A DNA stretch of 64,000 nt from Patescibacteria group bacterium (GCA_016861205.1 BOKX01000001.1:8539-72538), one strand, 5' to 3'. Positions 10,270-54,740 are shown, numbered from the stretch's first letter. The notes: generated by a model not told the origin, from the letters alone. Translations and numbers: made by a program.

Positions 10270-10307
10270 CTCCTTCTGGGCAAGGTGATATGTTAAAAGG
10301 TTGAGTG

Positions 10308-10381
10308 AGGCACGGAGGGGATTCGAACCCCTGAACGGAGGTTTTGCAGACCTCGCCATTAGGCCACTCTGGTACCGTGCC
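10308..10381 (-). tRNA. tRNA-Cys (anticodon GCA)
   Basis: The reverse complement gives GGCACGG..CCGTGCC acceptor, a 3-bp D-stem (CCA/TGG) typical of tRNA-Cys, anticodon stem GAGGT/ACCTC with loop CTGCAAA, and T-arm GGGGTTCGAATCCCC. Confidence 0.88.
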
Positions 10382-10425
10382 ACTGTTGCCGATTATAACG
10401 TGTCCGGGCTACTGGTCAAAAGCAA

Positions 10426-11148: not shown

Positions 11149-11180
11149 ACACTGTCCTCAGTTGTTGCTATTATTTTGGT

Positions 11181-12137: not shown

Positions 12138-12188
12138 TATCGGCGGTTTTCTGCCTGATTTGTCGAGCAAAGCTGGTACAATACCCGC

Positions 12189-15499: not shown

Positions 15500-15833
15500 T
15501 GGTGGGCACAGTTAAGTGATGGCCCCAAGCTCTCGAAGTTTGGGGAGGAAAGTCCGGACAGCAGGACAAAAGGTGCTTTGTCGAAAGGCAAAGGCTCCAC
15601 CTCGGTGGAGACAGTTAGAGCCACAGTGACGATGCGGGTGGCGCCGCGTGAAACGACCAAGCCTCTGGGTATCTCGCTTCGGCGAGAGGGTAATCCTCCC
15701 TGCTGCAACTGCCGAACTTCACCGTAATGGAGTTGTCCCCTTTTCCTCATTTTTAATGAGGTCGGTGATAAGGACGCAGGCATAGATAGATCATCACTCT
15801 CGACAGAATCTGGCTTATCGACTGTGCCCACTT
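15500..15833 (+). ncRNA. rnpB: RNase P RNA (bacterial type A)
   Basis: Conserved P4 strands GGAGGAAAGTCCGG (5' part) and ACAGAATCTGGCTTATCG (3' part). P1 is formed by GTGGGCACAGT (15502-15512) pairing with ACTGTGCCCAC (15821-15831). Confidence 0.88.
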
Positions 15834-37809: not shown

Positions 37810-37879
37810 AGTTCAGTTTGATTTGATTTGGTGTTTTGCAGTATACCATCGGTTCAGCCCGTTGAAAATTTTTAACCAC

Positions 37880-37915
37880 AAAAAAACCACCTCAAGAAAG
37901 GTGGCTGTTTTTTTT
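37880..37915. terminator. Bidirectional rho-independent terminator (A7-CCACCT-caagaa-AGGTGG-ctg-T8) about 155 bp past the 16S 3' end
   Basis: 6-bp GC-rich stem flanked by an A-run on one side and a T-run on the other. On the minus strand it reads as hairpin plus U8 directly downstream of the 16S gene. Confidence 0.6.
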
Positions 37916-38068
37916 GCATCTGACGCAAACACGGCGGTAGAAACCAGTTCACTTTTCACCCGAGGGTGAAAAGCAGCCCAGGTATGGTGACCATGGGACT
38001 TGGTTGTTTCATCACTATTACTAGTGAAGGGAAAATAAGGGGTCGTGATGTCCCTACCCATTCTCCTT

Positions 38069-39545
<1,477 letters not shown>

Positions 39546-39920
39546 AAAAAAAGTTTGATTGCTCTATTTAAAAAAATTGTACGGATTTTCTGTCCATCGA
39601 AAGATGGTAGAAATTCCGACAATTCTAGATCCGAAGATCTAGAGTCCAGTTTCTACCACCATGTTCGTTTCAGATGATGTATGAATGTATATTCATACAT
39701 TTTTTCCTTAGTGAATGATGGTTAGCTGTCAAATTCACTAAGGTCTTAACTTGTTAACGATCATAGAAACTCATGCAAAAACCCCACTGGTGTTTCACCG
39801 GTGGTGCTATACTGAGTTTAAATCTGAGACTAGTTCCCGTGTGGGCTTGGTCCGAAGAAACATTATTCTAACAAAATTGAGCCAGATGTCAAAGGGAAGA
39901 ATTACAAGGAAAGGAAACCT

Positions 39921-40721
39921 ATGGCAGTTGAACAAGGTTACAATCCAGAAGCTGAGCCACCAAAGCGTGAGGTGGTGGCAAAACTGAATCAGAGTCATAG
40001 CGAAGAGCTGTTAGGAGCTGTCTTAGGTGAGAAAATTATTGAGCCACAACCAGAGGTACTGCAGCGATCGCCGGCACTTTTTGAAAGTTTAGGTATCACT
40101 GTTCAGAAAAGTGAAGATACTGGAAAACACCAGGTCGCGATCGATGCTTCACACTTGGGAAAAACCTTGGCCAGAAAAATGTGGAAGGAAAAAATCTGGT
40201 TTTTGGCTCGCCCGCCACAAGAAATTGTCGCTCAGTACCGGACTTTGCTTGGCTTATCCCAAGAGTTTGGCCAGGTACCAGCTAACGTGATGACCCACAT
40301 GTACATGTTGGGACGGCAGCCAAGTGCTGAAAAACTGAGTCGGGTTGTGGATCGTCAGTTCGGCGTCGGCCAAGAGTTGCTATCAGCCTGGTTAGCACTG
40401 GCCTCAGCCTTACCGCCGTTTTTAGCTCGATCGGAACGTTTCCCTTTGAAAGACGATGTGATCACGGTGGTACAGAAGGTATGGAACGATGCCTTGGCAA
40501 TGGAGACCGCTTTGGGTGACCTCAAAGGTATTTTGGCAGCACACCCAGAGCTGCAGCTCACTCCTGGGCAAACGCAAATTCTCCGTGTTTGGGAACAAAA
40601 ATTGCCGCAATTGTTGGCTGGTTTACCCGCCGAGTACAAACCGAAACTGGAGGAGTTGTCAACTGAAACAACCGGTCACATTCAACCAGTTCGGCGAGTC
40701 ACACCACCGAACGAGGGCTGA
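39921..40721 (+). CDS. Hypothetical protein
   Basis: 266 aa ORF divergent from the 16S gene. An AT-rich 375-bp leader with hairpins lies upstream. No recognisable domain. Confidence 0.4.
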   Translation: MAVEQGYNPEAEPPKREVVAKLNQSHSEELLGAVLGEKIIEPQPEVLQRSPALFESLGITVQKSEDTGKHQVAIDASHLGKTLARKMWKEKIWFLARPPQEIVAQYRTLLGLSQEFGQVPANVMTHMYMLGRQPSAEKLSRVVDRQFGVGQELLSAWLALASALPPFLARSERFPLKDDVITVVQKVWNDALAMETALGDLKGILAAHPELQLTPGQTQILRVWEQKLPQLLAGLPAEYKPKLEELSTETTGHIQPVRRVTPPNEG

Positions 40722-41927
40722 TTAAGCAACCTGCGGGTTGGTGGGCTCAGTGCCATAGGCCTCAAACTTAGCTAGCACCCCGGCAGCTAGGTGGATAAGC
40801 TCGGCGAGCAGTTCACGACGCCGATCGCCACTGATGATTTGAAAGTCTTCTTTGCTGGGAAAGTTCTCGATTATGAAGTTAAACAGATCTTGAGCAGTTT
40901 GGCCCAACTCGCTCAGCTCAGGATGTTCAAACAAAATCATATCGATAATTTGGCAGGCTGAGAGGATTTGGTTGACAGTGCCCCATCGCAAGCGGTTTTC
41001 ATTGTAGGTATCACTAAAGATGGTGCCAAACTGTTTGACCATGTCTTGCTTCCAACCGGTTCGACCGCCTTTACTACCCGGTTCACCGTGGTTATCGCCA
41101 AATCCGTCGACGATTTCAGGTCTGGAAATCATGGTTTGCAAGTATCCCAAAGCAAGTTGGAGCTGTTGTTGGTCACTATCACTCAAGGATGAGAAGTGGT
41201 CGCTGTTGATGTGGTACTGGCGTTCACCGGAAGGCACAATTCGGCAGTGGCCACGACCTTTGGTGCCGTACCGCAAGATAAAGTGCATTTGTTCAGTTTG
41301 GCTGAGTTGTTGATCCTCAAATAACGTTCGCAATCGGCGTGCCACCGCCGGGGTAATCCGGCGCAACTGAACTTGGTCGCTGACTGGGGGTTGTGCAAAG
41401 TCATCGAGAACATCACGAATAGTCACTAAAAACTCTTGATCACCGGCGGGACTTTTGACTAGCTCGAAGGTGCGAATGACACCGGTCTGTTTTAACTCGG
41501 CGAGCACAACTGCTTGATGCGAGGTGGCAGTAATGGTGAAGCGGTGCAGATATAGCTCGTCACTGATTCGGCCGATGATCTCGCGGGTCAACTCAATTTT
41601 TTCAGTCTGACTAGCATGGTCGGCAGTGGCGACAGCCAGACCTTCGAGGTGGTTTGAAAAGCCTGGTCGACGGCCAAAAATGGCAAAACCAACGCCAATC
41701 GGTCGATCATGGCGATGAGCCGTCATCATAAAGCTGTTTTGCTTCACGACTGGGGCAGTTCTCAGCTGAGACAGTGTCTCAGCGAGCGCCTCACTGGGAG
41801 GTTGGAGCGTGGCCAGAGTGGCTGATACTTCTCCCAACTCAACGTGATTAGTCACTTGATATCTGGCCAAACCAACCATTTCCGGACCAGTTGTATATGC
41901 GGTTTCAACATTAACCATAAGCGGCAA
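40722..41927 (-). CDS. Hypothetical protein
   Basis: 401 aa ORF, convergent and abutting the previous gene. No confidently recognisable domain. Confidence 0.4.
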   Translation of the reverse strand: MPLMVNVETAYTTGPEMVGLARYQVTNHVELGEVSATLATLQPPSEALAETLSQLRTAPVVKQNSFMMTAHRHDRPIGVGFAIFGRRPGFSNHLEGLAVATADHASQTEKIELTREIIGRISDELYLHRFTITATSHQAVVLAELKQTGVIRTFELVKSPAGDQEFLVTIRDVLDDFAQPPVSDQVQLRRITPAVARRLRTLFEDQQLSQTEQMHFILRYGTKGRGHCRIVPSGERQYHINSDHFSSLSDSDQQQLQLALGYLQTMISRPEIVDGFGDNHGEPGSKGGRTGWKQDMVKQFGTIFSDTYNENRLRWGTVNQILSACQIIDMILFEHPELSELGQTAQDLFNFIIENFPSKEDFQIISGDRRRELLAELIHLAAGVLAKFEAYGTEPTNPQVA

Positions 41928-41952: not shown

Positions 41953-42645
41953 CTACTTTAGGCCGATTCGTTCGGCAAAAACCAGTAGTCTTTTACTAGT
42001 AGTACCCGGTGGCCAACAGGTTTGCAGAACTATTGTTTCTGCGGAGTACTCTTGCTGTAAAAAGCTGACATCGTCGGGATTGACCACCTGACTGTGGGTC
42101 ACTCGGTACTCATAGCGTTGCTCATCGTGCCAAATAAACACTTCGTCATCAGGCTTGAGTTTGCCGAGCAAGTAAAACACGGCGTTGTACTGGAATCGCA
42201 AATCTGGACTCGATGAATGGGCAAAGTAGTACCCTAAGCCAGGATTATCAGGAATAGCTGTCCCGGAGGCCTGTGCGATTCCCTGGCGCAAAGCTTTGGT
42301 GTACTGGGCTTTGTTGTTTGGATCAACGTTAAAGATGACTGGTTCATCGAGTTGCAGCCGCGGAATAGTAATGCCATACGCTTGATGGCGGCTTTGGCCA
42401 CGTAGGTCAAGAATGCCTTCGAAGTTGGGAATAATCAGCTGTCGAATATCCTGGACGCCAAACACCCCACTGAGTACCTGTTGAAACTGATACTTAGTCT
42501 CTACGACGAGGACGGGAATGTACGTTAGGCTCAGCCAAGCCATGAACACCATGATCAAGGTAGCTGAAGTGATGGTGATAAACCAGTCAGAACTAATGAG
42601 GTGGCGAAGGTAAGTGCCTGCCGACTTGGGCCGTAAACCGGACAT
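41953..42645 (-). CDS. Sortase (transpeptidase)
   Basis: N-terminal TM anchor and catalytic-Cys block IVLQTCWPPGTTSKRLLVFAE (TLxTC-like). Adjacent to a cell-wall-sorting-signal protein. Confidence 0.75.
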   Translation of the reverse strand: MSGLRPKSAGTYLRHLISSDWFITITSATLIMVFMAWLSLTYIPVLVVETKYQFQQVLSGVFGVQDIRQLIIPNFEGILDLRGQSRHQAYGITIPRLQLDEPVIFNVDPNNKAQYTKALRQGIAQASGTAIPDNPGLGYYFAHSSSPDLRFQYNAVFYLLGKLKPDDEVFIWHDEQRYEYRVTHSQVVNPDDVSFLQQEYSAETIVLQTCWPPGTTSKRLLVFAERIGLK

Positions 42646-42654
42646 AGAGAAAGT

Positions 42655-43848
42655 TTAGCGAATCCAGCGCTTTTTAGCCATCTGGAGGCCAATTCCGGCC
42701 AATCCACTGCTTGCCCCAATCATCGAGATCACAGTTGGCATACCAGTGTCAGGCTGCTTTGTCAGTGGCTTAGTGTTGATGTAGATGGTTTTTTGACAGG
42801 TGTTGTCGCCCCCGCGCCATTGATCAGAGCTGTCTAAGACATAGGCTTTGACCGTGTAGGTGCCGGCAGTTTCGTAGCGTTGCTCGAAAGTTTGGCCATC
42901 ACTCTCTTTGGTGATACCGTTGCCAAAATCGAGTTTGTAGCGCTTCAGGTTACCCTTGTTGTCGTAACCAGTGACTTTGAAACTAACGGTACTAGGTGCT
43001 TGCGCATTGTTGCCTGCCGTTACGAATAGGTCACTACAGGCAGCTTTGTGTGACTCGACACTTGAGCTCTTGACCGTGACGCGAGTTTCACAGCTGCTGT
43101 TGGTTCGCCAGTTGCCTTGACTGTCTTTAACGTCGACTCGAGCCACGAACGAGCCAGAGGTTTCGTAGGTGTGTTGGATTTCGGCTTGGTCGGTTTCTTC
43201 TTGTTTGCCATCACCGAAGTAGTATTTGTAGCGTTGAATCGAACCTTTGTTGTCACTGGCTCGCGCACGCAGGGTGACTTTGGCGGGCACAGTTTGGTTG
43301 TCACCACCCACCACAGATAGCTGTTCACAGCGACTCTGGTGAGCTACGGTGGGAGTTGCTTTAACACTAGGTGTTGGCTGTGGAGTAGCAACTGGGGTTG
43401 GTTTTGGGGTAGCCACAGTCTCGGCTTTTTTGACACTGAGGTAGTCAGTGTTGCCGCAGTTGTTGATAGTGGCTGACTGACAAATAAAGCTGTAGCGCCC
43501 ATTTTCAGGTACGGTGTAACCGCGCAGTTCTGGTTGATTGCTGACGCGTTCTTTTTTGCCACTGGGTAGCCGGACTTCGATGTAGCCACCGAGCAAAGTT
43601 GACTTGCCGTTTTGGGCAAAACAGTTCACGTCAATGCGGTCCCCTACCTTGAGGCCAGCTTCGGTGATCTGGGCACCGTTAATCCAGGGCTTGTCGCCAG
43701 CAGTGCTGACACGGAACTGGGTATCGACTGGTTTGACACTTTGGCAGCTGGGGGCTGGGTCGGCACTGCTGTTTGCTGCCGAGCTGCCCTGGGGCAAAGC
43801 CAAGGTTAGAGCAAATAACGTTACGAGGATGAAGAAAATGCGACGCAT
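42655..43848 (-). CDS. Secreted surface protein with two PKD-like repeats and C-terminal sorting signal (QPDTG + TM + KKRWIR)
   Basis: Signal peptide present. Repeats YKYYFGDGKQEETDQAEIQHTYETSGSFVARVDVKDSQGNW and YKLDFGNGITKESDGQTFEQRYETAGTYTVKAYVLDSSDQW. C-terminal KQPDTG followed by a hydrophobic stretch and a basic tail. Confidence 0.65.
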   Translation of the reverse strand: MRRIFFILVTLFALTLALPQGSSAANSSADPAPSCQSVKPVDTQFRVSTAGDKPWINGAQITEAGLKVGDRIDVNCFAQNGKSTLLGGYIEVRLPSGKKERVSNQPELRGYTVPENGRYSFICQSATINNCGNTDYLSVKKAETVATPKPTPVATPQPTPSVKATPTVAHQSRCEQLSVVGGDNQTVPAKVTLRARASDNKGSIQRYKYYFGDGKQEETDQAEIQHTYETSGSFVARVDVKDSQGNWRTNSSCETRVTVKSSSVESHKAACSDLFVTAGNNAQAPSTVSFKVTGYDNKGNLKRYKLDFGNGITKESDGQTFEQRYETAGTYTVKAYVLDSSDQWRGGDNTCQKTIYINTKPLTKQPDTGMPTVISMIGASSGLAGIGLQMAKKRWIR

Positions 43849-45038: not shown

Positions 45039-45824
45039 TTATAGCGGATAGGTCAGTGAAATAAAAGGACACGCCTCGGTGGCGAATCGAGCCACTTCCC
45101 AGGTGCCAGTCCAGTTGGTTGGTGTCAGGGCATATAGTGCCCACTGTGGACCGGTGGCCAGCGTGCTTTGAGCGTAAAACACAACGGTGCCGTCCTCGCC
45201 GAGAGGCACTTCGGAACTCAAGGGTGTTTTGCTCCCAAAAGAAGGTTGATAGCCAAATCGAAGTTTGTAGTCCAGATAGCCAAGAGTGTTAACTACGCCG
45301 AAGGCGTTGCGCGACTGTCCGGCTGATAACAGTTGGATGCCCCGCTGGTGCATCTCGCGCAGGAAGAGATAGTCGATCACTGCCCCGAGTGAGGAGTTGG
45401 CAGTGTTCGTCAAATCCAGGCGATCGGTGGCTTTGAAGGCAAAGGTGGCTTTTTCGGTGCCGTTGACGGCAAAAATCCCCGACCCCACCAACTTGCCCTG
45501 CTGATACATGAGGAGGCCCAACACTTTTTGTCCAAGCGCCGTTTTTTTGGCAAACCACTCCTGGCTAGCAATCACGTCGTACTGGTTCTCCAACATTTTT
45601 TGCTGATAGTACTCCAGCCAGCTGCCAAACTGCTCAGCCGAAAGTTCCTCCAGAGTCCAGGTGATTTGTTTGGCGGCCAACAGCTCATCCACATTGGACA
45701 GGAACTTGCGCAAACCCTTGCTCAGGATGTGCGGGGTCACACTTTCGTCAGGAGTGAGACTGGGAAATCGCCAGCGAATTTTCTCTGGTCGGGTCAGATG
45801 GTACGGCTCTAGGTTGACGGTCAT
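45039..45824 (-). CDS. Hypothetical protein, possibly FemAB/CelD-like GNAT-fold (Acetyltransf_6-like)
   Basis: 261 aa. The C-terminal block LGAVIDYLFLREMHQRGIQLLSAGQSRNAFGVVNTLGYLDYKLRFGYQP weakly resembles the FDFGRGDE.YKERFGA signature of the Acetyltransf_6 family. Its start overlaps the stop of the upstream ATP-grasp gene by 4 nt. Confidence 0.3.
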   Translation of the reverse strand: MTVNLEPYHLTRPEKIRWRFPSLTPDESVTPHILSKGLRKFLSNVDELLAAKQITWTLEELSAEQFGSWLEYYQQKMLENQYDVIASQEWFAKKTALGQKVLGLLMYQQGKLVGSGIFAVNGTEKATFAFKATDRLDLTNTANSSLGAVIDYLFLREMHQRGIQLLSAGQSRNAFGVVNTLGYLDYKLRFGYQPSFGSKTPLSSEVPLGEDGTVVFYAQSTLATGPQWALYALTPTNWTGTWEVARFATEACPFISLTYPL

Positions 45825-46855
45825 ACTTTCTCAAGCTCTGGAAACATCTGGTACAACAAAACCTGAGCCACGTTGCGAGCGGGGCCCTTCATGGGGTAGT
45901 GGTGGATGCTGTAGTGGGGGCCAGCGTTGACTTCGATGACGAAGTTTTTGACCGTGCTTTGATCAGCTGTTAGGTCCTCAGTCATGAAGTCGAGACCAGC
46001 GAATGGTAACTCGGGTATGGCTTGGATGGCTTTGAGGGCAATTTCCTTGACTGAAGGGTGTGCCTCGTCAGTTAGGTCAACGCTGTCGCCGCCTTGTGAT
46101 AAGTTGGACACCAGTTTCAGAAACACTTGTCTTCCTGCCTCAAGTACACTGTCAGCTGTCAGGTTCTGTTGTTTAAGTAACTCGAGCGAGTCTTCTTTCA
46201 ACATAACGTGAGGGTAGGGATCGTCGTGTTTGGGGTTGATGTTGCGCAAAGGATCTTGGTTTTTGATCTCGATCAGTTCGGCAATGGTATGCTGGCCATC
46301 CCCCACTACGTTGGCTGGAATCCGAGCCATGATTGCCAGGACTTTGTCAGGTGTTAACGTAATCCGATACTCGTCGCCACTGACTTGTTTTTCGAGCAAA
46401 AAGCCTTGGTCAAGATTGATGGCAGCCTGTCGAACGGTTGGTAAGTGTTTGGCAACATCGTCACGGTTTTGCAGGTTGGTATACACGGCACTGCCGTTAT
46501 TGCCATGGGAAGACTTCAAGACGACTGGATAGCCCAAGGCATCAGCCGCTGCCAAAACTTGGTCATCAGTGGCCTCTTGCGAAAAATGCTGGCCGTCGGC
46601 AATCGTGACACCCGCTTCCTGCAGAAACGTGCGAGTGATGCGCTTGTCCAGACAAGCATAGTACGAGACAAACGTGGTGTTGGCTGAAAACCCACCAAAG
46701 AAAAACCGCTTCTTGCCTTGATAAGTCAGCTCAAATAAGCGACTGCTGTCGATTTGCCGCCAGCTGACGCCGTGTTTTTCGGCCTCTTCGAGCATGACGC
46801 GTTCTTTAGTGCTGATATTTTCTTCATTTCTGAACTGCATGGCACTCATAGTCAC
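45821..46855 (-). CDS. ATP-grasp ligase resembling the N-terminal (Asp-adding) module of cyanophycin synthetase CphA (paralog 2)
   Basis: Blocks YPVVLKSSHGNNGSAVY, PANVVGDGQHTIAELIEIKNQDPLR, ANLSQGG, and the C-terminal VIEVNAGPHYSIHHYPMKGPARNVAQ. Compare CphA PAHVTGDGTSTITELIDKTNQDP / VIVEVNAAPGFRMHVAPSQGLPRNVA. 4-nt overlap with the next gene. Confidence 0.7.
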   Translation of the reverse strand: MTMSAMQFRNEENISTKERVMLEEAEKHGVSWRQIDSSRLFELTYQGKKRFFFGGFSANTTFVSYYACLDKRITRTFLQEAGVTIADGQHFSQEATDDQVLAAADALGYPVVLKSSHGNNGSAVYTNLQNRDDVAKHLPTVRQAAINLDQGFLLEKQVSGDEYRITLTPDKVLAIMARIPANVVGDGQHTIAELIEIKNQDPLRNINPKHDDPYPHVMLKEDSLELLKQQNLTADSVLEAGRQVFLKLVSNLSQGGDSVDLTDEAHPSVKEIALKAIQAIPELPFAGLDFMTEDLTADQSTVKNFVIEVNAGPHYSIHHYPMKGPARNVAQVLLYQMFPELEKV

Positions 46856-47835
46856 TTCACTTTCTGTTCAATCATTTCTAGAATCGCCGAGGCAACATCT
46901 CGGGGCTGACCTTGAATAGGATAGTGGTGCATTCTCAGGCCGGGTGAAGCGTTGACTTCAATGACTCCAGCGCGAGTTTGATTGACAATTGGGGTGGTTA
47001 AGTCCTGACACATGATGTCGATACCGATCACATTCAGGTCGCAGGCTCGAGCGATGGTTTCAAACAAAGTCTTGTTTTCTGGGCAGACCTGGTCGGTTAC
47101 ATCCCAGGCTTCGCCGCCGGTGGACAGATTGGCAGTTTTGCGCAGAGCCACCTCTTGGCCTGGGGGGACAACTGCCTCAAGCTCCAATTTCTGGTCGGCC
47201 AGATTTTGACGAACGGTGTCATCAACTTCAATTAAGGTTAGGTTGTAGGTGTGACCTTTACCGCGCCAGGGGTGTTGGTTTTTGATCTCGATTAGTTCGG
47301 CAATCGTGTGTTCTCCGTCCCCGACCACATGGGCTGGTTTGCGAAATGCCACTGCGACTAGCTGGTAGTCGACACAGACTACCCGATACTCAGTCCCCTG
47401 GAGCATTTCTTCACAGATCGACTCTGGTTGCTGTTGCCCTAGCCAGAGTTCGCGGACCGCCGCCGCGTCGGCTACGCCGACGCTGACGTCTTTCCCGTGG
47501 CGACCACCGACTGGTTTGACCACTACCGGGAACTGAAGTTGAGACAACTGGTCAAAATCCGCTTCCGACTTGATCAACACAAATGGCGCCGTGGGCAACT
47601 GAAAGTGGCTTAGGACGAGCTTGGTGAGTGGTTTGTAGTCAGCGATAGTTTTGCCGACTGAGGACTGCCAACTGGTTCTCGAGCCACGGGTGTACCATTG
47701 GTGGCCGTTTTTTGACATCAGGATTGTTTGGCGATCGCCCAACAACTGACACTCGATACCACGCTTGGCCGCGGTTTCAGCCATGATGCGGGAGCTGGCT
47801 TCCAAGGGTGGGCGGTTGGTGGTGGTTTCAGACAT
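46852..47835 (-). CDS. ATP-grasp ligase resembling the N-terminal module of cyanophycin synthetase CphA (paralog 1)
   Basis: FPVVVKPVGGRHGKDV, PAHVVGDGEHTIAELIEIKNQHPWRGKGH, ANLSTGG, GVIEVNASPGLRMHHYPIQGQPRDVASAILEMI. Shares the identical HTIAELIEIKNQ stretch with its neighbour. 8-nt overlap with the upstream DUF1704 gene. Confidence 0.72.
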   Translation of the reverse strand: MSETTTNRPPLEASSRIMAETAAKRGIECQLLGDRQTILMSKNGHQWYTRGSRTSWQSSVGKTIADYKPLTKLVLSHFQLPTAPFVLIKSEADFDQLSQLQFPVVVKPVGGRHGKDVSVGVADAAAVRELWLGQQQPESICEEMLQGTEYRVVCVDYQLVAVAFRKPAHVVGDGEHTIAELIEIKNQHPWRGKGHTYNLTLIEVDDTVRQNLADQKLELEAVVPPGQEVALRKTANLSTGGEAWDVTDQVCPENKTLFETIARACDLNVIGIDIMCQDLTTPIVNQTRAGVIEVNASPGLRMHHYPIQGQPRDVASAILEMIEQKVK

Positions 47836-48790
47836 GAGGCACTTCCTCTATCACTTGATGAAATTGATTTTTGACACCGATTTCATAGATACCTTGACGA
47901 TACTTGGCTAGGTCATCAAAGAAACTAGGATACAACAACTGCTTAGTTTCGGCTGTGGGGGCATATTTGTCAATCTCCTCGAGACTAATCCGACCCAAGT
48001 AGAGGTGATAGGGATTGTGAGACTCATCTTGGAGCCAGTGCCAGATCTGTAAACAACCCTCGAGGTAGCAAATATCCTTAGTTGGACCACCGGGCTGGGA
48101 TGTGTCTGTCAAACCGCGTTTTGCCCGCAGTGTATGAAGCCAAGACATGCGTTCACTGATGCCCAAAGCGCGAAGCTGGGCATAGGTCTCAGTAAATGAG
48201 TACCGCTGCGCCAGCCAGGTGGTGAGGTATGTTCGAAAGGTTTTGCGCATGTAACGGCCGCTAAACAGGTTGGTATGAAGGCCGGCCAAGCCTTCTTCAG
48301 TACGGCGGAAATGGTCGTCAGCCGCTGTGTAATCCGGCCAGTTTTGGAGTTGATGATTATGAATGCGCAGGTAATGCGTTTCGAGTTCATGGCGGTACAC
48401 ACCTTGGAACTCGAGAGGTGAGTAGATCAGGGGCAGCCGAAACTCGATCTTATCAGGTGAAACTCGACACTGTGTGACCATTTGGTCAGTAAAAACGACT
48501 TTGAGCGGCTCTTTCAGCCGATAGGCGTGATTAAACTGGTCGATCGCTTCTCGAATACTGGCTTGGGTGACAATTTCAGTCTTTGGTTTCCAGGGGTCAA
48601 CTGTATTGATGTGAATGATCATTTCTCGAGCAAACTCGGCCAACCGGTCCTTAGGGAGTCCCCAGGCATGCAGTTGATCGGTTGCGATGTTCTGTCGGTA
48701 GGTAAACTGGGGATTATAGGTTTGGTCGGCCAAAAAATGGTTGTACTCTTCAACCAAGTTAGTGGGTGTCAGGTGCGAAATAATCTGCAT
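47828..48790 (-). CDS. DUF1704 'QEGLA-motif' family protein, putative metallocarboxypeptidase (MATCAP-like)
   Basis: HExxxH-type motif HELETHYLR followed by the family-typical EEGLA (RRTEEGLAGLHTNLF). 320 aa, a length typical for the family. 1-nt overlap with the upstream ATP-grasp gene. Confidence 0.6.
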   Translation of the reverse strand: MQIISHLTPTNLVEEYNHFLADQTYNPQFTYRQNIATDQLHAWGLPKDRLAEFAREMIIHINTVDPWKPKTEIVTQASIREAIDQFNHAYRLKEPLKVVFTDQMVTQCRVSPDKIEFRLPLIYSPLEFQGVYRHELETHYLRIHNHQLQNWPDYTAADDHFRRTEEGLAGLHTNLFSGRYMRKTFRTYLTTWLAQRYSFTETYAQLRALGISERMSWLHTLRAKRGLTDTSQPGGPTKDICYLEGCLQIWHWLQDESHNPYHLYLGRISLEEIDKYAPTAETKQLLYPSFFDDLAKYRQGIYEIGVKNQFHQVIEEVPHV

Positions 48791-50073
48791 TAACTCACGT
48801 CTCCAACCAAGAAACCGCTCAGGTCGTTACGCCCGATTTCCAGCTGATACTTGCTGCGGTTTAATGACTTCGAGACTACCATACTGGTACTCTGTTTGCG
48901 ACCTTTGAGCCGGAAGGACACTTGGACCACCGGTGCGCGGCCCTCCTCTTTTTCTGGTTGGTACCATAGAAAGTCATCAAGATCGATCAAGCCTAGTTTT
49001 TTGGCCAAGTCGCTAGAAATACAGCTGCGAAAACGACCGGTGTTAACGAGGGCCATGGTTTCTTCTTTGATTTGTTGATCGCCGTAAACGAGTACTTCTT
49101 CAAACGGCTTGATGATGGTCAAGCCGTCCTCGGCTTTGATTTTGTCGGAAAACTTTTCAGCAAACAAAGCCTGTCCAATCCGGACTCCATGGTCTGGATT
49201 TAAGACATTCAAATCTTGGACCCGCTCCAGCCGACGGCGCAAGCCTGCCCGGTTGGCAATTTGGATCGATAACCCTGGATTGGCGTTCAACTCAACTACC
49301 ATGGGGCCCTGCTCTTCGTGAATGAACAGGTCGATGGCGCAGTACATCAGGCCAGCCGCGTCAGCGGTCTTAACGGCGATAGTGAGGACGTCTTTCCAGT
49401 GCGGAATGCGAAAGCCACTCAATTTTTTCTTGGTGCCAGGCAGATATTGAATGGGAGTCCCTTTACCAATAATCGCGTGAGTTGTTACGCCCGTGGCCAT
49501 ATCAATGCCGACACCGATCGCACCTTGATCGAGGTTTGCTCGGCCACCAGACTCTTCAGTGGGAATGCGGATGTACGACATGATCGGGACGTGATTGAAA
49601 ACAATGACCCGCACGTCGGGCGTGCCCTTGGTGGTGTACTTGTAAAACGTGCCGTGAATTGGAACGCGCTCCTCAACAATGACATGGTGGTTAACGCCAT
49701 ACGTGCTGTACTGACCTTCTAAAATATCAAAGCAGTGAAACTTGATCTCATCCAAACTCCACACCTTGCCTAAAGTGTCCACCCAGTGTTGCTTGTCATT
49801 TTGCTGGGTTTTGAAGATCAACACTCCTTTACCGGCGTTGCCGTTGGTAGGTTTGATGACGAAGTTTTTCTCTAGGTGTTCCCACTCGAATTGGTTCACG
49901 TCTTCGTAGGTCGTCAAAATGGCAAAAATTTTGGCGGTCGGAATATGCTTGTTTTCGAGCAAGACTTTGGTGGCGTACTTGGAGGCGCAAAACTGACGAG
50001 CTGTGGCCGAGTTCAGCTTGCCGTAGATGAGCTGGCGGGCGTTCATGCCCAGAATGTCGCGTGCTTTAGGCAT
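48790..50073 (-). CDS. RimK-type 'alpha-L-glutamate ligase-like' ATP-grasp enzyme fused to a C-terminal retropepsin-like (DUF785/Zn_protease-type) domain
   Basis: N-terminal ~310 aa: GMNARQLIY...KYATKVLLENKHIPTAKIFAI, FVIKPTNGNAGKGVLIF, DVRVIVFNHVPIMSYIRIPTEESGGRANLDQGAIGVGIDMATG, MVVELNANPGLSIQIANRAGL. These match my recollection of the TIGR02291/RimK-related family. C-terminal ~110 aa: ALVNTGRFRSCISSDLAKKLGL...VVQVSFRL...LEIGRNDLSGFLVGD, resembling the AKIDTGA.TS..RPVI..LLGR..L block pattern of DUF785. Confidence 0.65.
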   Translation of the reverse strand: MPKARDILGMNARQLIYGKLNSATARQFCASKYATKVLLENKHIPTAKIFAILTTYEDVNQFEWEHLEKNFVIKPTNGNAGKGVLIFKTQQNDKQHWVDTLGKVWSLDEIKFHCFDILEGQYSTYGVNHHVIVEERVPIHGTFYKYTTKGTPDVRVIVFNHVPIMSYIRIPTEESGGRANLDQGAIGVGIDMATGVTTHAIIGKGTPIQYLPGTKKKLSGFRIPHWKDVLTIAVKTADAAGLMYCAIDLFIHEEQGPMVVELNANPGLSIQIANRAGLRRRLERVQDLNVLNPDHGVRIGQALFAEKFSDKIKAEDGLTIIKPFEEVLVYGDQQIKEETMALVNTGRFRSCISSDLAKKLGLIDLDDFLWYQPEKEEGRAPVVQVSFRLKGRKQSTSMVVSKSLNRSKYQLEIGRNDLSGFLVGDVS

Positions 50074-50084
50074 AGCCGTACTCT

Positions 50085-51068
50085 TTACTCTTCAATAATT
50101 GACTTGAAGCGCAGCCATTCTAGTAAGCGTAAACCGGTGTACCGACCGACCACAATGTTGATTGCTGCCACGCCCAGCAAGGTCAGTTCTGGTTGCAAAA
50201 TGACGCCTTTTTGGACGAACTCGGAACCAACGACAATAGAACATAGCACCGCCGTGATCAACGTTTCAAAGGTCAACTGGAGGGTTGCGGACTGGCTACT
50301 GGTGAGCTGCGACTCCATAAAGTTTTCTGTTAATAGCATGATGATCAGCAACGGGAAGATGCTAATACCAGCGATGAAGTTACCGGGTAGGTAGACTGAA
50401 GAAATCAGCGCCAGTAACACCACAATTGAGACTCCCCAGAGCAACAAGGCAGTCCGAGGTAAGTAGTGCAGTTTCAGGCGTTTGAGAATTTGGCGAGCGG
50501 TCAAAGCAGCCAATAAGGTGATCATGAACAGCACAATGCCGTTGATAATCCCCGTCGAGACAAACGCAACCGATAGCACCGCTGGAATGTAAATGCCGAA
50601 GCCTTTCATGCCAATGATGTGGCGGGTGAACGAAATGAAGGCGGCAATCACTGGGAACAACAGGACTAACACCACGATGTTGGCTGGCAACCCGCGGTTG
50701 ATAGCTTCTCGGATAGGATGTTGTAAGAAGTTATGCCAACTCAAGGGGCCGATGGGGTTTTCATCCAGCCAAGCAGCTAGCTTGCTTTTCTGAGGCGCAG
50801 TGGACTGAGTAATGTCCTTATCCTGTTTCTCTTGAATCCTTTGTTCCAGTTGAGCCGAAATTGACGCTAACTGTGCCGATAGGCTGGCCTCGCCGCTTTG
50901 GGTAGCCACTTCCGCGCTCAAAGTCGCGTCGGTAGCTGGTGAAGGACTGGCTGAGGCAGCACGAAGTTGGGACACAGTTTGGGCGGTGACGAGTGTGGGG
51001 TGGGTGGCGCTAGCTACCCAGGCGAACAGGCTCAATGCCAGCAGTCCCCAAATAAAGTGGCGAATCAT
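50085..51068 (-). CDS. Secreted-N-terminus multi-TM membrane protein (possible 7TM partner of RimK-like ATP-grasp systems)
   Basis: Signal peptide (MIRHFIWGLLALSLFAWVASA), ~100 aa Ser/Ala/Gln-rich extracytoplasmic segment, then 6-7 TM helices. Stops 11 bp upstream of the ATP-grasp fusion gene. Confidence 0.45.
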   Translation of the reverse strand: MIRHFIWGLLALSLFAWVASATHPTLVTAQTVSQLRAASASPSPATDATLSAEVATQSGEASLSAQLASISAQLEQRIQEKQDKDITQSTAPQKSKLAAWLDENPIGPLSWHNFLQHPIREAINRGLPANIVVLVLLFPVIAAFISFTRHIIGMKGFGIYIPAVLSVAFVSTGIINGIVLFMITLLAALTARQILKRLKLHYLPRTALLLWGVSIVVLLALISSVYLPGNFIAGISIFPLLIIMLLTENFMESQLTSSQSATLQLTFETLITAVLCSIVVGSEFVQKGVILQPELTLLGVAAINIVVGRYTGLRLLEWLRFKSIIEE

Positions 51069-51113: not shown

Positions 51114-51482
51114 TTATAAAATAAACCCAACAATTGACTGTAAGAAGCTGATTAAAAATGAGGCAAACAGCAGCGAGAAAAACTGGTTGAGTTGCACGCC
51201 GCCCACGGTCATTTCAGTGATTCTAAAGCCTGGTACTAAGTACATCGCCAACCATAGAATGAGGACATTTAGGACGAGTGAAAAGAAACCCAACGTAATG
51301 ATGTTGATGGGTAAAAACAAGAGGCTCAAGATTGGTTTGACGAACTTTTGCAGGACCGTTAAAACAAGACCAGCCAAAACTAACGCCGTCCAGTTGGCAT
51401 AATCGATTGTCGGTAGCAACCAACTGAGAATCGCAATGGTGACGGTTGTTGAAATGATCGGTTTGAGTAAGTTAAGTGTCAT
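51114..51482 (-). CDS. Phage holin family IV-like (DUF360) small membrane protein
   Basis: 122 aa with four TM helices and the characteristic ..LVPGFRI.. turn (LAMYLVPGFRITEMTVGG). No phage genes nearby. Confidence 0.5.
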   Translation of the reverse strand: MTLNLLKPIISTTVTIAILSWLLPTIDYANWTALVLAGLVLTVLQKFVKPILSLLFLPINIITLGFFSLVLNVLILWLAMYLVPGFRITEMTVGGVQLNQFFSLLFASFLISFLQSIVGFIL

Positions 51483-51574: not shown

Positions 51575-52984
51575 TTAGGTGAACATCTGATTCAACCGGC
51601 GTCGCGACTGTTGTCGTTTAGAGAAACGGTGTGCTTCGTCCCGAAGCTGTTGAATCAACTTTAGGCCAGGATGTGTCTCGGGTAGTCGCAAAACGTGGTA
51701 ACGTGGCACGCTGCCCAGTTGGTAATCCTTTAAAGAACGCTTAGGACTCGGTTGGGAAATCAACTCGGGACCAGGGATGATTAATCGATCAGGGTCCTTG
51801 GCAATACTGATGACAGGAGTTGTCCACTGCCAGACCTTCAGAGCAGCACGTAACTGGCCTTTGCCACCGTCGATCACAATCAGGTCGGGTTGACCCCATT
51901 CGGGGTGATTTTGGCGGCGTTGCAGGGCTTCCTGGAGCATAGCGAAGTCATTTGGTGTGTCCAGAGTGCGAATGTTAAAGACTTTGTACTCTTGGTTGGC
52001 TGCCTGACCGTCAATGAATGTAACCATCGAGACAGCTGCGTAGGTGCCACTGATGTTGCTGACGTCATAAGCTTCGATGCGGTGCAGTGGGAAGGTGGCT
52101 GGCAAACTCAGGTAGGTTGAGAGCATTTTTCGCAAGTACACGACACCCTCCTCGGCTTGTGATGCCCGGAGGTGCGGTAGTGTTAAATCAGGTCGTAGTG
52201 AGTATGTTCGTTGGGTGACGGCGGTGATGACTTCTACTCGGTCTCGTAGGGTGGCAGCTAGTTCGTACTGTTCTTGTTCTGACGCGAGCTTCATTTGTTG
52301 CGAAATCATCCGGACCACATCTTTTTTTTGACCTTTGAGGAACATGACCAGTTGTGCAATGGTTTGCTGGTACTCTTCTGGAGTAACGCGACCGATACAG
52401 GCACCTGGACACTGACTGATGTGGTAGAAGAAACACGGTCGGGAGTTGGGTTTGGCTGGATCGACACCTTCGTTGCACCAGGGGAAAATCTTGCGAGCAA
52501 TTCCTAAGACTTCCCTCACTTTGTAGGCACTGGGGAAAGGTCCCAGGAGTGTCCCCTTCATCGGTCGAGTTTCGGTTTCTTTCTTACGTCGAGTTAACAC
52601 TCTGGGGTAGGGTTCGGCCGTGATCTGGATGTAGAGCGGGGTTTTATCGTCTTTGAGCAAGATGTTGGTCGGTGGTTGGTGTGTGCGAATGAGCTCAGCC
52701 TCGACAAGCAAAGCTTCAAGCTCACTATCGAGCACCTGCCACTTAAGCTGCTGGGCAGTCTCGACCATGCCGCGAATGCGGCTGCTGAGCTGGTTCACTT
52801 GGCGATAGGTGTTAACGCGATTTTTGAGATTTTTGGCTTTACCGACGTAAAGAACTTGGTTAGCGCCGTCGAGAAACCAGTATACCCCCGGTTGCGAGGG
52901 CAACTGCCGCGCCGCCGACTCCCAGGCCAATGAGGAAGCCTCGGTTGGTGAAGTAACTGATGAAGGCTGGGGCGAGTTGGGCAT
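51575..52984 (-). CDS. uvrC: Excinuclease ABC subunit C (short form lacking the C-terminal HhH domain; start uncertain)
   Basis: GIY-YIG (QPGVYWFLD..LYVGKAKNLKNR), Cys-rich region, UVR domain (EQYELAATLRDR), and the endonuclease domain (IEAYDVSNISG, IDGGKGQ). 469 aa against ~600 aa typical. The annotated start overlaps the upstream ORF by ~125 bp. Confidence 0.8.
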   Translation of the reverse strand: MPNSPQPSSVTSPTEASSLAWESAARQLPSQPGVYWFLDGANQVLYVGKAKNLKNRVNTYRQVNQLSSRIRGMVETAQQLKWQVLDSELEALLVEAELIRTHQPPTNILLKDDKTPLYIQITAEPYPRVLTRRKKETETRPMKGTLLGPFPSAYKVREVLGIARKIFPWCNEGVDPAKPNSRPCFFYHISQCPGACIGRVTPEEYQQTIAQLVMFLKGQKKDVVRMISQQMKLASEQEQYELAATLRDRVEVITAVTQRTYSLRPDLTLPHLRASQAEEGVVYLRKMLSTYLSLPATFPLHRIEAYDVSNISGTYAAVSMVTFIDGQAANQEYKVFNIRTLDTPNDFAMLQEALQRRQNHPEWGQPDLIVIDGGKGQLRAALKVWQWTTPVISIAKDPDRLIIPGPELISQPSPKRSLKDYQLGSVPRYHVLRLPETHPGLKLIQQLRDEAHRFSKRQQSRRRLNQMFT

Positions 52985-54740
52985 GCGTGTCGGTGATTAA
53001 TTTGGCTTGGTAATTTTGTAGTTGCATTGTAACCTGAACAGCTGAGGTCGTGGGCCAGAGTTCATCAGGGTTGATGGCTACCAACGGCAGCCGTTGGGTT
53101 TGATATGGTAACACTACCGGCAAGGTTTTTTCTGCTACGGTCACTTTTTGTCCGCCAAGTACCGCGGTGACGCTGGCTCTGGCTCCATACCATGCAGAAC
53201 CAGTTTGGTTAACAACTTCAAGCTCGAGCCAACCAGGAATAGATATGCCCCAGATTTTTTTGGGGACAATTCTGACTTCTAGATCTGGCTCTGTTTCAGG
53301 AAATGTGGTGCCAAAATCAACACTGACATCTTTGGTGTTTTGGTCAGTTAACTTGTATGAACCTGCTGGATACGGCAAAGTACTGGACTGACCGTTGATG
53401 GCAAACACAATGTGGTTGAGATCAAACTGGTCGAAGTAGTTCACTCCCCCGGTGGTGTTGCCCCAGGTGGGATCGATTGGTCGCCACTGGTTTGTTTGGT
53501 AATCATAGTACTCAGGCCAAGCGTGCAAAATATCCTCTACTAAACTGAGTGGGCGCAGCGCGCTATTTTCGGTATGGGCATAGCCTGTTAATCGACGTGT
53601 GGGAACTTGATTTGCTCGAGCGAGAGCAATAAACGTGTCAGTAAACTCTTGGCAGTTGACGTTGGCTGGGCTGGCCAAGGTAGTAACTGCCCCTAGGCGA
53701 GTCGGTGTTCCTTGGGTGGGGTCAAAACCATAGCTTAAGGTGTTAACGACGTAGTCATACATGGCTCGAGGGGTGTGGTGCTCGCTAGCGACTTGTTGGA
53801 CGGCAGGCTGATCACTCTCCCAGTAGGTTTGTGCTTGCAAGAGGCTCGAGCTTGGTTCGGCTACTGGAATGGTGAGATCTGGCTCCAGCGTGAGTTTAGC
53901 TTGGGCAGTGGCGTAGACGATTGTTTCAGAGGCAGCCGGAAGTTGGTACGTTGCAATCCAGTTGCCATCTGGGTCTGCTTCGATTTTTTGCGGCAAAGGG
54001 TCGAGTTGTGAGTAGTGCAGTTTTTGGTAAGGCGTATCTGGGGGCAAGGCAATTTGCATCAAGCCCGGACCGTTGGTAGTGTTTTCCAAGTTGTAACGCA
54101 GCGTCAGGTTAAAAACTTGTTCTGAGCCAAATAAAGCTGCGACACCGGTACTGCCCACCTGGGAAAAATGGGTGATGATCTGGTTGTCTTGATTTTCCAC
54201 CAAAGTAGGATCGGGGGTGACTCGAACAGGCTGGCCGTATTGACTGGGAGTTCTGAGGGTGACTGAGTAGCGGTCGTAAGTTTGTTCAGTACTGAGGGCA
54301 GGTACATATAACTCAAGCACTTTGCCACTAACTACACTGGCATCCTCTTGGTCATAGATAATTTTGATGGTTCGAGTTTTGCCCTCGCCGACCACTTTAT
54401 CGGGAAACGTCAGGCCAACGCTGGTCAGATGGTCGGTTTTGACCACGTTGGGCTGAATGACTTGGTCGTCGCTGGTGACGCGGACATTTTTAATGTCAGT
54501 CCCAGAGGTAATCTTGAGCGCGTATTGTCGGACGTACAGCGTCGGAGTTTTGTTTGTGATGTGAATTTGGTGTTCAACAGTCGTGTTTTTAATGCCGGTC
54601 ACGGTGTACGTACTGTCGAGAGTGAAGCTGAAGTTGGAGTCGGCTTGGGCTGGTTGGAGTGGTGGGATGATGGCCAGGGTAACTAGGAAGAGTATCCAAG
54701 TCACCACAGTTTTGAATAGAAATTGAAGCGGCTTTCTCAC
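52860..54740 (-). CDS. Secreted transglutaminase-like (papain-fold) protein with C-terminal TM anchor
   Basis: Signal peptide. Transglutaminase-core Cys block NCQEFTDTFIALARANQVPTRRLTGYAH followed by HAWPEYYD (His/Asp candidates). C-terminal GLGVGGAAVALATGGILVSRRR anchor. Confidence 0.6.
   Translation of the reverse strand: MRKPLQFLFKTVVTWILFLVTLAIIPPLQPAQADSNFSFTLDSTYTVTGIKNTTVEHQIHITNKTPTLYVRQYALKITSGTDIKNVRVTSDDQVIQPNVVKTDHLTSVGLTFPDKVVGEGKTRTIKIIYDQEDASVVSGKVLELYVPALSTEQTYDRYSVTLRTPSQYGQPVRVTPDPTLVENQDNQIITHFSQVGSTGVAALFGSEQVFNLTLRYNLENTTNGPGLMQIALPPDTPYQKLHYSQLDPLPQKIEADPDGNWIATYQLPAASETIVYATAQAKLTLEPDLTIPVAEPSSSLLQAQTYWESDQPAVQQVASEHHTPRAMYDYVVNTLSYGFDPTQGTPTRLGAVTTLASPANVNCQEFTDTFIALARANQVPTRRLTGYAHTENSALRPLSLVEDILHAWPEYYDYQTNQWRPIDPTWGNTTGGVNYFDQFDLNHIVFAINGQSSTLPYPAGSYKLTDQNTKDVSVDFGTTFPETEPDLEVRIVPKKIWGISIPGWLELEVVNQTGSAWYGARASVTAVLGGQKVTVAEKTLPVVLPYQTQRLPLVAINPDELWPTTSAVQVTMQLQNYQAKLITDTHAQLAPAFISYFTNRGFLIGLGVGGAAVALATGGILVSRRR

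Follow-up and report, generated by a model that had tools for sequence, protein, structure and literature searches.

What can a bacterium make with ligases that resemble a single domain of cyanophycin synthetase? The question is raised by two adjacent genes, open reading frames (ORFs) A and B, in a 64,000-nucleotide stretch from a Patescibacteria group bacterium (GCA_016861205.1, BOKX01000001.1:8539-72538; hereafter the window, with positions counted from its first letter). A preliminary description, made from the sequence alone, had recognized both genes and a set of motifs recalling cyanophycin synthetase (CphA), and the coordinates and the motifs are borne out, with both genes on the minus strand:

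46852-47835, minus strand: ORF A, 327 amino acids (aa), ATG start; stand-alone ATP-grasp ligase of the CphA1 G-domain type, conserved core member
45821-46855, minus strand: ORF B, 344 aa from a GTG; divergent accessory ATP-grasp ligase of the G-domain type, with an altered nucleophile pocket

Each of the two is an ATP-grasp amino-acid ligase that stands alone: the homology to the G domain of CphA1 takes in the entire protein, and the N and M domains of CphA1 are missing. The answer that we favor, tentatively and at somewhat less than an even chance, is that they act with a RloC/RimK-type enzyme to lengthen an acidic peptide step by step at its C-terminus, using ATP; a Fem-like enzyme would add further residues and a MATCAP-type peptidase would trim the peptide, which would not be cyanophycin.

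The characteristic motifs are PAHVVGDGEHTIAELIEIKNQHPWRGKGH, ANLSTGG and VIEVNASPGLRMHHYPIQGQPRDVA in ORF A, and PANVVGDGQHTIAELIEIKNQDPLRN, SNLSQGG and VIEVNAGPHYSIHHYPMKGPARNVA in ORF B (in public gene calls ORF B starts at an ATG at 46849, two codons downstream of the GTG, which gives 342 aa). Searched against NCBIfam, ORF A matches the cyanophycin synthetase model TIGR02068 with 314.7 bits (E=1.2e-93) and ORF B with 253.1 bits (E=5e-75). The two alignments together span model positions 150-474 of 862 (156-470 for ORF A), and neither ORF reaches the equivalog cut-off of 850 bits. GshAB is the second-best family for both (about 1e-60, about 204 bits) and Ngg (TIGR03103) the third (1e-37 to 1e-47, 129-162 bits); the Ddl or RimK families give E-values of only 1e-8 to 1e-13 in this family-model search. 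Sequence searches of the PDB retrieve the CphA1 chains 7lgn, 7lg5, 7lgm and 7wac at E=1e-57 to 1e-45. These alignments are single and colinear, about 315-335 residues long, and pair ORF residues 7-340 with CphA1 residues of about 150-482 (ORF A with 7lgn, E=1.1e-56 across residues 14-322; ORF B with 7wac, E=1.5e-48 across residues 7-340). Identity to the G domain of TeCphA1 is 34% for ORF A and 31% for ORF B, and ORF A is 38-43% identical to some full-length CphA1-like proteins. An AlphaFold model of ORF B (predicted local distance difference test, pLDDT, 91.6) gives template modeling (TM) scores of 0.81 with TeCphA1, 0.76-0.83 with GshF, 0.61-0.71 with CphA2 and 0.41-0.53 with Ddl, RimK and LysX. 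The similarity goes beyond generic ATP-grasp motifs, as the whole G domain is aligned both with TIGR02068 and with the PDB chains, and the ORFs do not group with Ddl-type enzymes, which appear only at E=1e-4 to 1e-5 in the PDB search and with low TM-scores for the ORF B model.

TeCphA1 consists of an N domain (residues 1-161), the ATP-grasp or G domain (162-487) and an M domain (488-876) (Miyakawa et al., PMC9427784). Because the matches cover about 150-482, ORFs A and B correspond to the G domain alone. The preliminary description had spoken of the N-terminal module of CphA; the colinear CphA1 homology stands, but it is the middle domain that is matched, and the N domain proper is absent. It had been right that the Arg-adding, Mur-ligase-like half is missing from both, as the model span and a Pfam search agree: the latter returned no match to PF18921, Mur_ligase_M or Mur_ligase_C, nor to PF04262, the γ-glutamylcysteine ligase domain of the GshF type. 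The fold, the ATP-binding lysines, the Mg ligands and the G-omega insert are all present, and both proteins belong to the CphA-G/GshF subfamily of the ATP-grasp superfamily.

The functional residues of TeCphA1 (PMC9427784) were mapped onto 120 A-family, 50 B-family, 12 GshF-like and 41 long CphA1-like sequences (TeCphA1 numbering is used throughout). K220, K261, R309, R323, S396, D431, E450, N452, G456 and R458 are invariant in the A family (120/120), N394 is found in 117 and H267 in 103 members, and ORF A of the window carries every listed catalytic and Asp-recognition residue of the G domain, H267, N394 and R458 included. His267, Arg458 and Glu215 are the residues that separate CphA1 from GshF, an enzyme that adds Gly and carries Phe/Tyr, Met/Tyr and Leu, respectively, at these sites (PMC9427784); our GshF-like set, with F267, Y/H458 and L215, agrees with this. 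R323, N394 and S396 were also considered as Asp-specific markers and discarded, being equally conserved in the Gly-adding GshF-like sequences. Since His267 and Arg458 are kept, ORF A most likely has a nucleophile pocket of the CphA1 type, with two carboxylate-binding arginines, and is predicted to add Asp or a similar acidic residue.

The acceptor side of the pocket is different. Glu215 of TeCphA1 binds the Arg side chain of the terminal β-Asp-Arg unit of the primer (PMC9427784). This position is Thr or Ser in 119 of the 120 A-family members, and Thr in ORF A itself. Position 214 is Lys or Arg in 101 of the 120, and R53 (TeCphA1 205), K166 (324) and K185 (343) are invariant basic residues specific to the family. 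Given the loss of Glu215 and the gain of invariant basic residues close to it in the sequence, R53, K62 and K166, the acceptor of A is probably an unbranched acidic tail rather than cyanophycin.

ORF B retains the ATP/Mg residues as well as R309 and R323, and has Asn for H267, His for G456, Ser for R458 and Tyr for E215. Throughout the 50 B-family sequences the ATP, Mg and acyl-phosphate residues are likewise retained, and the pocket varies (Q/H/W at 267, G/S/M at 456, D/S/A/C at 458). These substitutions suggest that B enzymes probably add non-acidic residues, as GshF does, with a specificity that differs between paralogues. The two ORFs are hence not equivalent enzymes: A keeps the acidic-substrate pocket of CphA1, and B is without His267, Gly456 and Arg458.

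A comparison with characterized relatives sharpens this picture. A and B are colinear with the CphA1 G domain (7LG5, 7LGN, 7WAC/7WAE), G-omega insert included, and preserve its ATP/Mg and acyl-phosphate residues; ORF A shares His267 and Arg458 with it in addition. CphA1, however, is an N-G-M protein of about 870-930 aa, whereas A and B comprise the G domain only, have Glu215 replaced and are accompanied by RimK/Rlo-type and MATCAP genes rather than by cyanophycinase. CphA2 (7TA5, 8FXH), which both ORFs match at E=1e-30 to 1e-41, polymerizes with the G-domain active site only; unlike the ORFs, of about 330 aa, it measures about 630 aa, with the N domain kept and the M domain truncated, and polymerizes β-Asp-Arg dipeptides. 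The ATP-grasp module of GshF/GshAB (3LN6, 3LN7) has the same subfamily fold (E=1e-34 to 1e-39) and resembles ORF B in lacking His267 and Arg458 and in adding a non-acidic residue, Gly. It is distinguished from both ORFs by its fused γ-glutamylcysteine ligase and by F/L/Y(H) at positions 267/215/458, which read H/T/R in A and N/Y/S in B.

How A and B are related to one another is a separate question, as an identical stretch of 12 aa shared by the two had been interpreted as a sign of recent duplication or of strong constraint. The stretch is real:

47275-47310, minus strand: HTIAELIEIKNQ in ORF A, residues 176-187, at the start of the G-omega subdomain
46256-46291, minus strand: HTIAELIEIKNQ in ORF B, residues 189-200, the identical 12-mer

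At the DNA level the copies agree in 33 of 36 nucleotides, with an exact run of 18. Identical codons are used at 9 of 12 positions within the stretch as opposed to 35 of 87 elsewhere (Fisher p=0.025), an excess that at most hints, and weakly, at micro gene conversion. The segment is conserved even in CphA1, where TeCphA1 reads STIAELIEETNR (core TIAELIE). A recent duplication is rejected: ORFs A and B are 31% identical overall, a neighbor-joining tree places them in different subfamilies, and B is found in only some genomes (0-2 copies, in variable order). In this tree (100 bootstraps) the A clade has a support of 96, and the GshF-like clade and a clade of acylphosphatase (AcyP) fusions have 100 each; the nodes that join A, B, CphA1 and GshF fall below 20, and we do not claim A as the sister of CphA1.

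The A family is itself well populated, with more than 120 stand-alone cluster representatives orthologous to ORF A (53-66% identity, 307-353 aa). Among 1.84 billion protein representatives, its ten top matches are nine stand-alone proteins of 322-335 aa and one fragment of 255 aa, followed by CphA1-like proteins of 840-930 aa. The best 150 relatives from this library also include giants of 1000-2400 aa with two or three tandem CphA-G-like ATP-grasp modules (P0276, P0278, P0279, P0284 and P0330). The nearest relative of ORF B, other than itself, is only 42% identical. Named homologues of A, of B and of the 261-aa protein encoded downstream of B come almost entirely from Patescibacteria (Woesebacteria, Pacebacteria, "Patescibacteria group"), and proteins identical to those of the window occur on metagenome contigs from runs DRR258780-82 and on a contig of 1.15 Mb. 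Many members of the A and B families are annotated by the Joint Genome Institute (JGI) as "cyanophycin synthetase".

Outside the Patescibacteria, the closest relatives of B come from alkaliphilic Bacillaceae and are fusions of acylphosphatase with ATP-grasp (about 530 aa, 33-39% identity). One Evansella halocellulosilytica locus that includes them (L074, NIST01000001.1, 1000-13413) encodes an ABC transporter, a GT2 glycosyltransferase, a TupA-like ATP-grasp protein and five consecutive ATP-grasp proteins of about 526-592 aa, at least three of which are fused to acylphosphatase domains. TupA is the product of the teichuronopeptide gene, teichuronopeptide being an acidic cell-wall polymer that contains poly-glutamate (PMC8153356), and the Evansella locus looks like a teichuronopeptide-type assembly line. 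Loci of this kind are like the one in the window in that they hold these relatives of B; they differ in the fused architecture and in their glycosyltransferase and ABC-exporter partners, without any Rlo or MATCAP genes.

Which partners do A and B have in the window? Six packed minus-strand genes run from 51068 to 45039, with overlaps of 1-8 nucleotides or a gap of 11, and ORFs A and B are translationally coupled members of this one operon, in which they occupy the fourth and fifth places. The other members, one notable domain and the gene immediately upstream are the following:

50085-51068, minus strand: RloB-like membrane protein with seven transmembrane segments (7TM), 327 aa; PF14402, E=2.3e-24; first gene of the conserved cassette
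48790-50073, minus strand: RloC-like ligase (RimK-related, ATPgrasp_ST), 427 aa; PF14397, E=9e-59; TIGR02291, E=5.8e-68
48793-49191, minus strand: retropepsin-like domain of the RloC-like ligase, residues about 295-427, with NTG in place of DTG
47828-48790, minus strand: MATCAP/DUF1704-type metallo-carboxypeptidase, 320 aa; PF08014, E=2.1e-23; TIGR02421 (QEGLA), E=1.2e-19
45039-45824, minus strand: Fem-like protein, 261 aa, accessory cassette member; its start overlaps the ORF B stop (ATGA)
51114-51482, minus strand: small protein with four transmembrane segments, PF04020; upstream neighbor, probably not part of the core

The RloB-like protein begins with a signal-peptide-like N-terminus and matches the RloB model NF052267 (E=5.5e-16) over positions 315-507 only, which is the C-terminal 7TM part; its N-terminal 130 aa gave no match to a transglutaminase domain in Pfam or NCBIfam. 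The RloC-like ligase scores 199 bits with PF14397, above the cut-off of 31.4, and 229 bits with TIGR02291 ("alpha-L-glutamate ligase-like"), below the equivalog cut-off of 314. Its retropepsin-like domain, a weak match to gag-asp_proteas (E=0.18), aligns as NTGRFRS…IGRxDLxGFLV in the window and as DTGADxS in the Paceibacterota homologues of loci L037 and L065. The alternation of NTG in Woesebacteria-like genomes with DTGA in Paceibacterota suggests either repeated inactivation or a protease domain that has switched to a binding or regulatory role.

The MATCAP-like protein exceeds the PF08014 cut-off of 27 with 83 bits. Among the window protein and 17 locus orthologues, HExxxH (HELETH in the window) is present in 18 of 18 and EEG[LIF]A (EEGLA) in 17 of 18; we take these motifs to be the zinc site, and the protein is predicted to be the C-terminal trimming enzyme of the cassette. 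The 261-aa protein has no Pfam or NCBIfam family match and 54 homologues, of which all five with an organism name are Patescibacteria. Its AlphaFold2 model (pLDDT 95.8) retrieves, in a Foldseek search of the PDB, the aminoacyl-tRNA-dependent peptide synthases Sbb17/Sba18 (E=6e-8), the C-domain of MprF, FemX, ATE1 and L/F-transferase. The top 23 matches belong to the tandem-GNAT aminoacyl-tRNA transferase superfamily or are uncharacterized, at TM-scores of only 0.41-0.49. This predicted fold points to an aminoacyl-tRNA-dependent transferase of the Fem/MprF/L-F-transferase-like, tandem-GNAT kind.

The operon is followed by mnmA and preceded by the PF04020 gene, uvrC, a transglutaminase-like membrane protein gene and uvrA. 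The PF04020 gene lies upstream of RloB in 16 related loci and in the more distant L041. The transglutaminase-like protein (626 aa, membrane-anchored, Transglut_core; 52860-54740, minus strand) is encoded between uvrA and uvrC, 1.8 kb upstream of the RloB-like gene; its ORF overlaps that of uvrC by about 125 nucleotides, and its position is kept across the Woesebacteria-like lineage. It attracts attention in view of the inactive transglutaminase domain of Pseudomonas RloB. Both this gene and the holin-like PF04020 gene were considered as parts of the system and rejected, as their synteny is confined to the Woesebacteria-like lineage and L041 and they are replaced in distant lineages. Promoter and terminator scans gave counts near the shuffle expectation.

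When 185,579 species genomes were scanned, 69 loci were recovered. Of the Patescibacteria-type loci, 16 reach far enough upstream to be judged; RloB-RloC is found upstream of the A orthologue in each of these, and a MATCAP gene lies between RloC and A in 14 of the 16 (in L016 it follows A, in L022 it is absent). Downstream of A there are 0-2 B-type genes and 0-2 copies of the 261-aa family, in variable order. In individual genomes this variable region also holds a second MATCAP, a RimK-like or YheCD-like ATP-grasp gene, an M29 aminopeptidase, DUF3541 or a GT4 glycosyltransferase. Since the synteny among these loci extends to the unrelated genes uvrA, uvrC and mnmA, by itself it is weak evidence of functional linkage.

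The core cassette is, however, also present in distant lineages without this uvrA/uvrC/mnmA synteny (L018, L023, L037 and L065); in L041 the core is found with uvrC and mnmA still nearby. L018 and L023 have thioredoxin-system genes upstream of the cassette, and the two Paceibacterota loci, L037 and L065, have RuvC. The gene order in L037 is RloB, RloC with DTG, MATCAP, a RimK-like gene, three G-type ligases, MATCAP, an unassigned ORF and an MFS transporter; L065 starts in the same way but has two G-type ligases, followed by HypD. L055, from Saccharibacteria, combines two RimK-like genes, a G-type ligase, an unassigned ORF and RimK. Two high-GC metagenome-assembled genomes (MAGs), L019 (labelled Proteobacteria) and L021 (labelled Sandaracinaceae), have an A-like gene of about 50% identity directly followed by RimK (PF08443 and Rimk_N), and in L010 RimK is two genes away. 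Given the RloC/RimK linkage in Patescibacteria and RimK in these three MAGs, the recurring partner of A-type ligases is a RimK-family ligase. The suggestion in the preliminary description that residues are added in concert with a RimK-like neighbor is thus favored by the comparative data.

A close precedent for this grouping is the rloABC system of Pseudomonas. P. aeruginosa deprived of its secreted RloA retropepsins is impaired under hypo-osmotic stress, and the defect is suppressed by deletion of rloB, which encodes a 7TM protein whose transglutaminase domain is inactive, or of rloC, which encodes an ATP-grasp protein (PMC12239564). RloA cleaves stretches of at least eight glutamates, and polyglutamylated substrates or free poly-Glu have been proposed for it (PMC12239564). 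The cassette in the window has counterparts of all three rlo genes, and A-like genes in other genomes pair with true RimK, which recalls RimK/RimB as well. The differences are considerable. RloA of Pseudomonas is secreted and active, whereas the retropepsin domain in the window is fused to the ligase, cytoplasmic and of the NTG form; the transglutaminase domain of Pseudomonas RloB has no detected counterpart in the RloB-like protein; and A, B, the Fem-like protein and MATCAP are additional, none of them being among rloA, rloB and rloC in the Pseudomonas study (PMC12239564).

It is a general principle that operon-linked ATP-grasp and GNAT ligases carry out successive peptide ligations (PMC4431377). 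Stepwise extension of an acidic peptide would proceed along these lines, with ATP phosphorylating the C-terminal carboxylate of the growing chain as in CphA1. K220 and K261 would bind ATP, D431, E450 and N452 would bind Mg, and R309 would hold the acyl-phosphate, which the amino group of the incoming amino acid would then attack. The RloC/RimK-type ligase would start or lengthen an acidic peptide, for example the α-Glu chain expected from such a partner, A would add an acidic residue to it, and B-type ligases would add different, non-acidic residues. The Fem-like protein may add residues from aminoacyl-tRNA to an amine, and trimming at the C-terminus would fall to the MATCAP-like enzyme. Their joint product would be an acidic heteropeptide, short or polymeric, that differs in composition between species. 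By analogy with Pseudomonas rloABC, the 7TM RloB-like protein would take it over for the cell envelope; we consider delivery by this route probable, with the modification of a protein tail as a serious alternative.

Several observations speak against stepwise extension of this kind. The substrate assignments for A and B rest on few aligned residues: with R323, N394 and S396 shared by GshF-like enzymes, the case for an acidic incoming residue comes down to His267 and Arg458, and at position 400 ORF A has Glu, as GshF has Asp, unlike CphA1. No transglutaminase domain is detected in the RloB-like protein, and Asn stands in for the catalytic Asp of the fused retropepsin-like domain in this lineage. 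No precursor-peptide gene fits within the operon. The acidic C-termini of the RloB-like (…SIIEE) and RloC-like (…VGENE) proteins were entertained as primers and rejected, as they are not consistently conserved; RloC of the window ends …VGDVS. The synteny is largely among fairly close relatives and takes in uvrA, uvrC and mnmA. In L023, moreover, the position of ORF A in the RloB-RloC-MATCAP cassette is occupied by an 843-aa protein (9653-12184) that joins a G domain to Mur_ligase_M and Mur_ligase_C, so that some relatives may make a branched, cyanophycin-like product; this fusion has Thr at position 215 and no match to the Pfam model of the CphA N domain, and a GNAT acetyltransferase gene follows it.

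Among the alternatives, protein tailing survives best, and we regard it as unlikely rather than remote. The ligases would here modify the C-terminus of a specific protein (the Fem-like enzyme, the N-terminus) in a reversible "tail code" without a free or exported polymer, as RimK does on ribosomal protein S6 and as TTL/TTLL and MATCAP do on tubulin. RimK-family partners and MATCAP-type carboxypeptidases are indeed known from C-terminal tailing of proteins (PMC12239564, PMC4431377), L/F-transferase and ATE1, which modify proteins at the N-terminus, are among the fold relatives of the 261-aa protein, and true RimK adjoins the A-like genes of L019 and L021. The resemblance to the tubulin tail code of TTL/TTLL ligases and MATCAP/vasohibin carboxypeptidases, in which residues are joined by ATP-grasp ligases to an acidic C-terminal tail and taken off again by a MATCAP-family metallopeptidase, is offered only as an analogy, as the ligases of the window belong to other ATP-grasp families and come with a membrane component. 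No candidate target emerged, the acidic C-termini of the operon proteins are not conserved, and the obligatory 7TM partner together with the variation of ligases between species better fits a surface or exported product.

Synthesis of a small molecule is improbable. A and B would sequentially make a di- or tripeptide from free amino acids, such as a compatible solute or a glutathione-like compound, in the way of the GshF and N-acetylglutaminylglutamine synthetase modules. GshAB and Ngg are after all the second and third family matches of the ORFs (about 204 and 129-162 bits), and GshF fits the ORF B model as well as CphA1 does (TM-score 0.83). The Rlo system is tied to osmotic-stress tolerance (PMC12239564), and an MscS channel gene is found two genes from the A-like gene in L010. 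On the other side, the window operon has no GshA or GNAT acetyltransferase module, residues 267 and 458 of A are of the CphA1 and not of the GshF type, and the carboxypeptidase, aminopeptidase and extra ligases of related cassettes are hard to square with a single solute.

Tailoring of peptidoglycan, in which the ligases and the Fem-like transferase would decorate the stem peptide or cross-bridge of murein much as D-Asp ligase and FemX do in Gram-positive bacteria, we judge quite improbable. The FemX/MprF-like fold of the 261-aa protein and the variable accessory set fit this idea, which would also explain species-specific enzyme sets, and both a sortase with its putative surface-protein substrate in the window and a Mur ligase near the A-like gene of L019 could be cited in its favor. 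The sortase, the surface protein and the Mur genes are, however, not consistently linked to the cassette in distant lineages, and its constant partners, RimK/RloC-type ligases and MATCAP, are without a known murein role. The known D-Asp ligase, for its part, belongs to a different ATP-grasp family.

A split cyanophycin synthetase, with A extending the backbone and either B or a Mur-type ligase encoded elsewhere adding Arg in trans, is very improbable: CphA1 is the best database match of both ORFs, the JGI label implies it and the G-Mur fusion of L023 sits in the same cassette position, but the scores of 315 and 253 bits stay far below 850, the polymer-anchoring N domain and the M domain are absent, Glu215, which recognizes the Arg branch (PMC9427784), is Thr or Ser in nearly the whole A family and in L023 too, and no Mur-type ligase, cyanophycinase or isoaspartyl dipeptidase is encoded among the operon genes, to which annotation was limited. 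Genuine cyanophycin synthesis is unlikely because the N and M domains and Glu215 are lost, the scores are far below the cut-off and the operon contains no cyanophycin catabolic gene.

A broader extrapolation from stepwise peptide extension, doubtful though conceivable, is that Patescibacteria and some genomes labelled Myxococcota or Proteobacteria share a modular, non-ribosomal "peptide-tail" system, in which species-specific acidic heteropeptides are written and erased. RimK/RloC-type, CphA-G-type and Fem-type ligases would be the writers, and MATCAP and other peptidases the erasers. Either the tail would be an envelope polymer, exported and representing a new class of poly-amino acid, or it would modify a protein, as a prokaryotic counterpart to the tail code of tubulin. 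If this were true, the A family would be a primer-dependent α-peptide Asp ligase, an activity so far known only inside cyanophycin synthetase, and the cassette would serve as a pointer to the product class of the clinically relevant rloBC genes of Pseudomonas.

Altogether, the kind of enzyme is known, namely an ATP-grasp peptide ligase of the CphA-G/GshF subfamily, whereas it appears to be undescribed in the literature within our reach that the G domain stands alone, that its acceptor pocket is changed and that Rlo/RimK, MATCAP and Fem-like genes accompany it. In this literature, which did not extend to the amidoligase survey of Iyer et al. (2009), we found no paper on stand-alone CphA-G-like proteins or on operons of DUF1704 and ATP-grasp genes. 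The backbone chemistry of cyanophycin synthetase, in which Asp is joined to a peptide C-terminus via an acyl-phosphate, has so far been studied only in the three-domain enzyme, and a version of it that is widespread, stands by itself and differs in its acceptor pocket would offer a new means of producing poly-amino acids. The pipeline label "cyanophycin synthetase" could mislead about nitrogen storage in Patescibacteria. The Rlo module of Pseudomonas affects osmotic tolerance, antibiotic resistance and biofilm formation (PMC12239564). By tying an Rlo-type module to further peptide ligases and to peptidases, the cassette supports a peptide product for Rlo systems and provides a simpler system in which to identify it. 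The bacterial MATCAP homologues embedded among ATP-grasp ligases also form a parallel to the editing of tubulin tails in eukaryotes.

Other features of the window deserve brief mention. A 397-aa surface protein with a PKD domain (42655-43848, minus strand) ends in …KQPDTG, a hydrophobic stretch and KKRWIR, judged from its sequence to be a sorting signal of the sortase type, with QPDTG as an unusual motif; a sortase gene lies directly downstream (41953-42645, minus strand), and the pair is kept in related genomes. Between the sortase and the 16S rRNA gene are encoded a 401-aa protein (40722-41927, minus strand), which recurs in identical metagenome contigs, and a 266-aa protein (39921-40721, plus strand), both without a Pfam match. 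The 16S rRNA gene (38071-39551, minus strand) is complete and solitary, the window as a whole giving no match to 23S rRNA; the ORFs at 37813-38314, which overlap its end, are spurious. A class-A RNase P RNA is located at 15504-15833 on the plus strand, with 105 bits just over the gathering threshold of 100.

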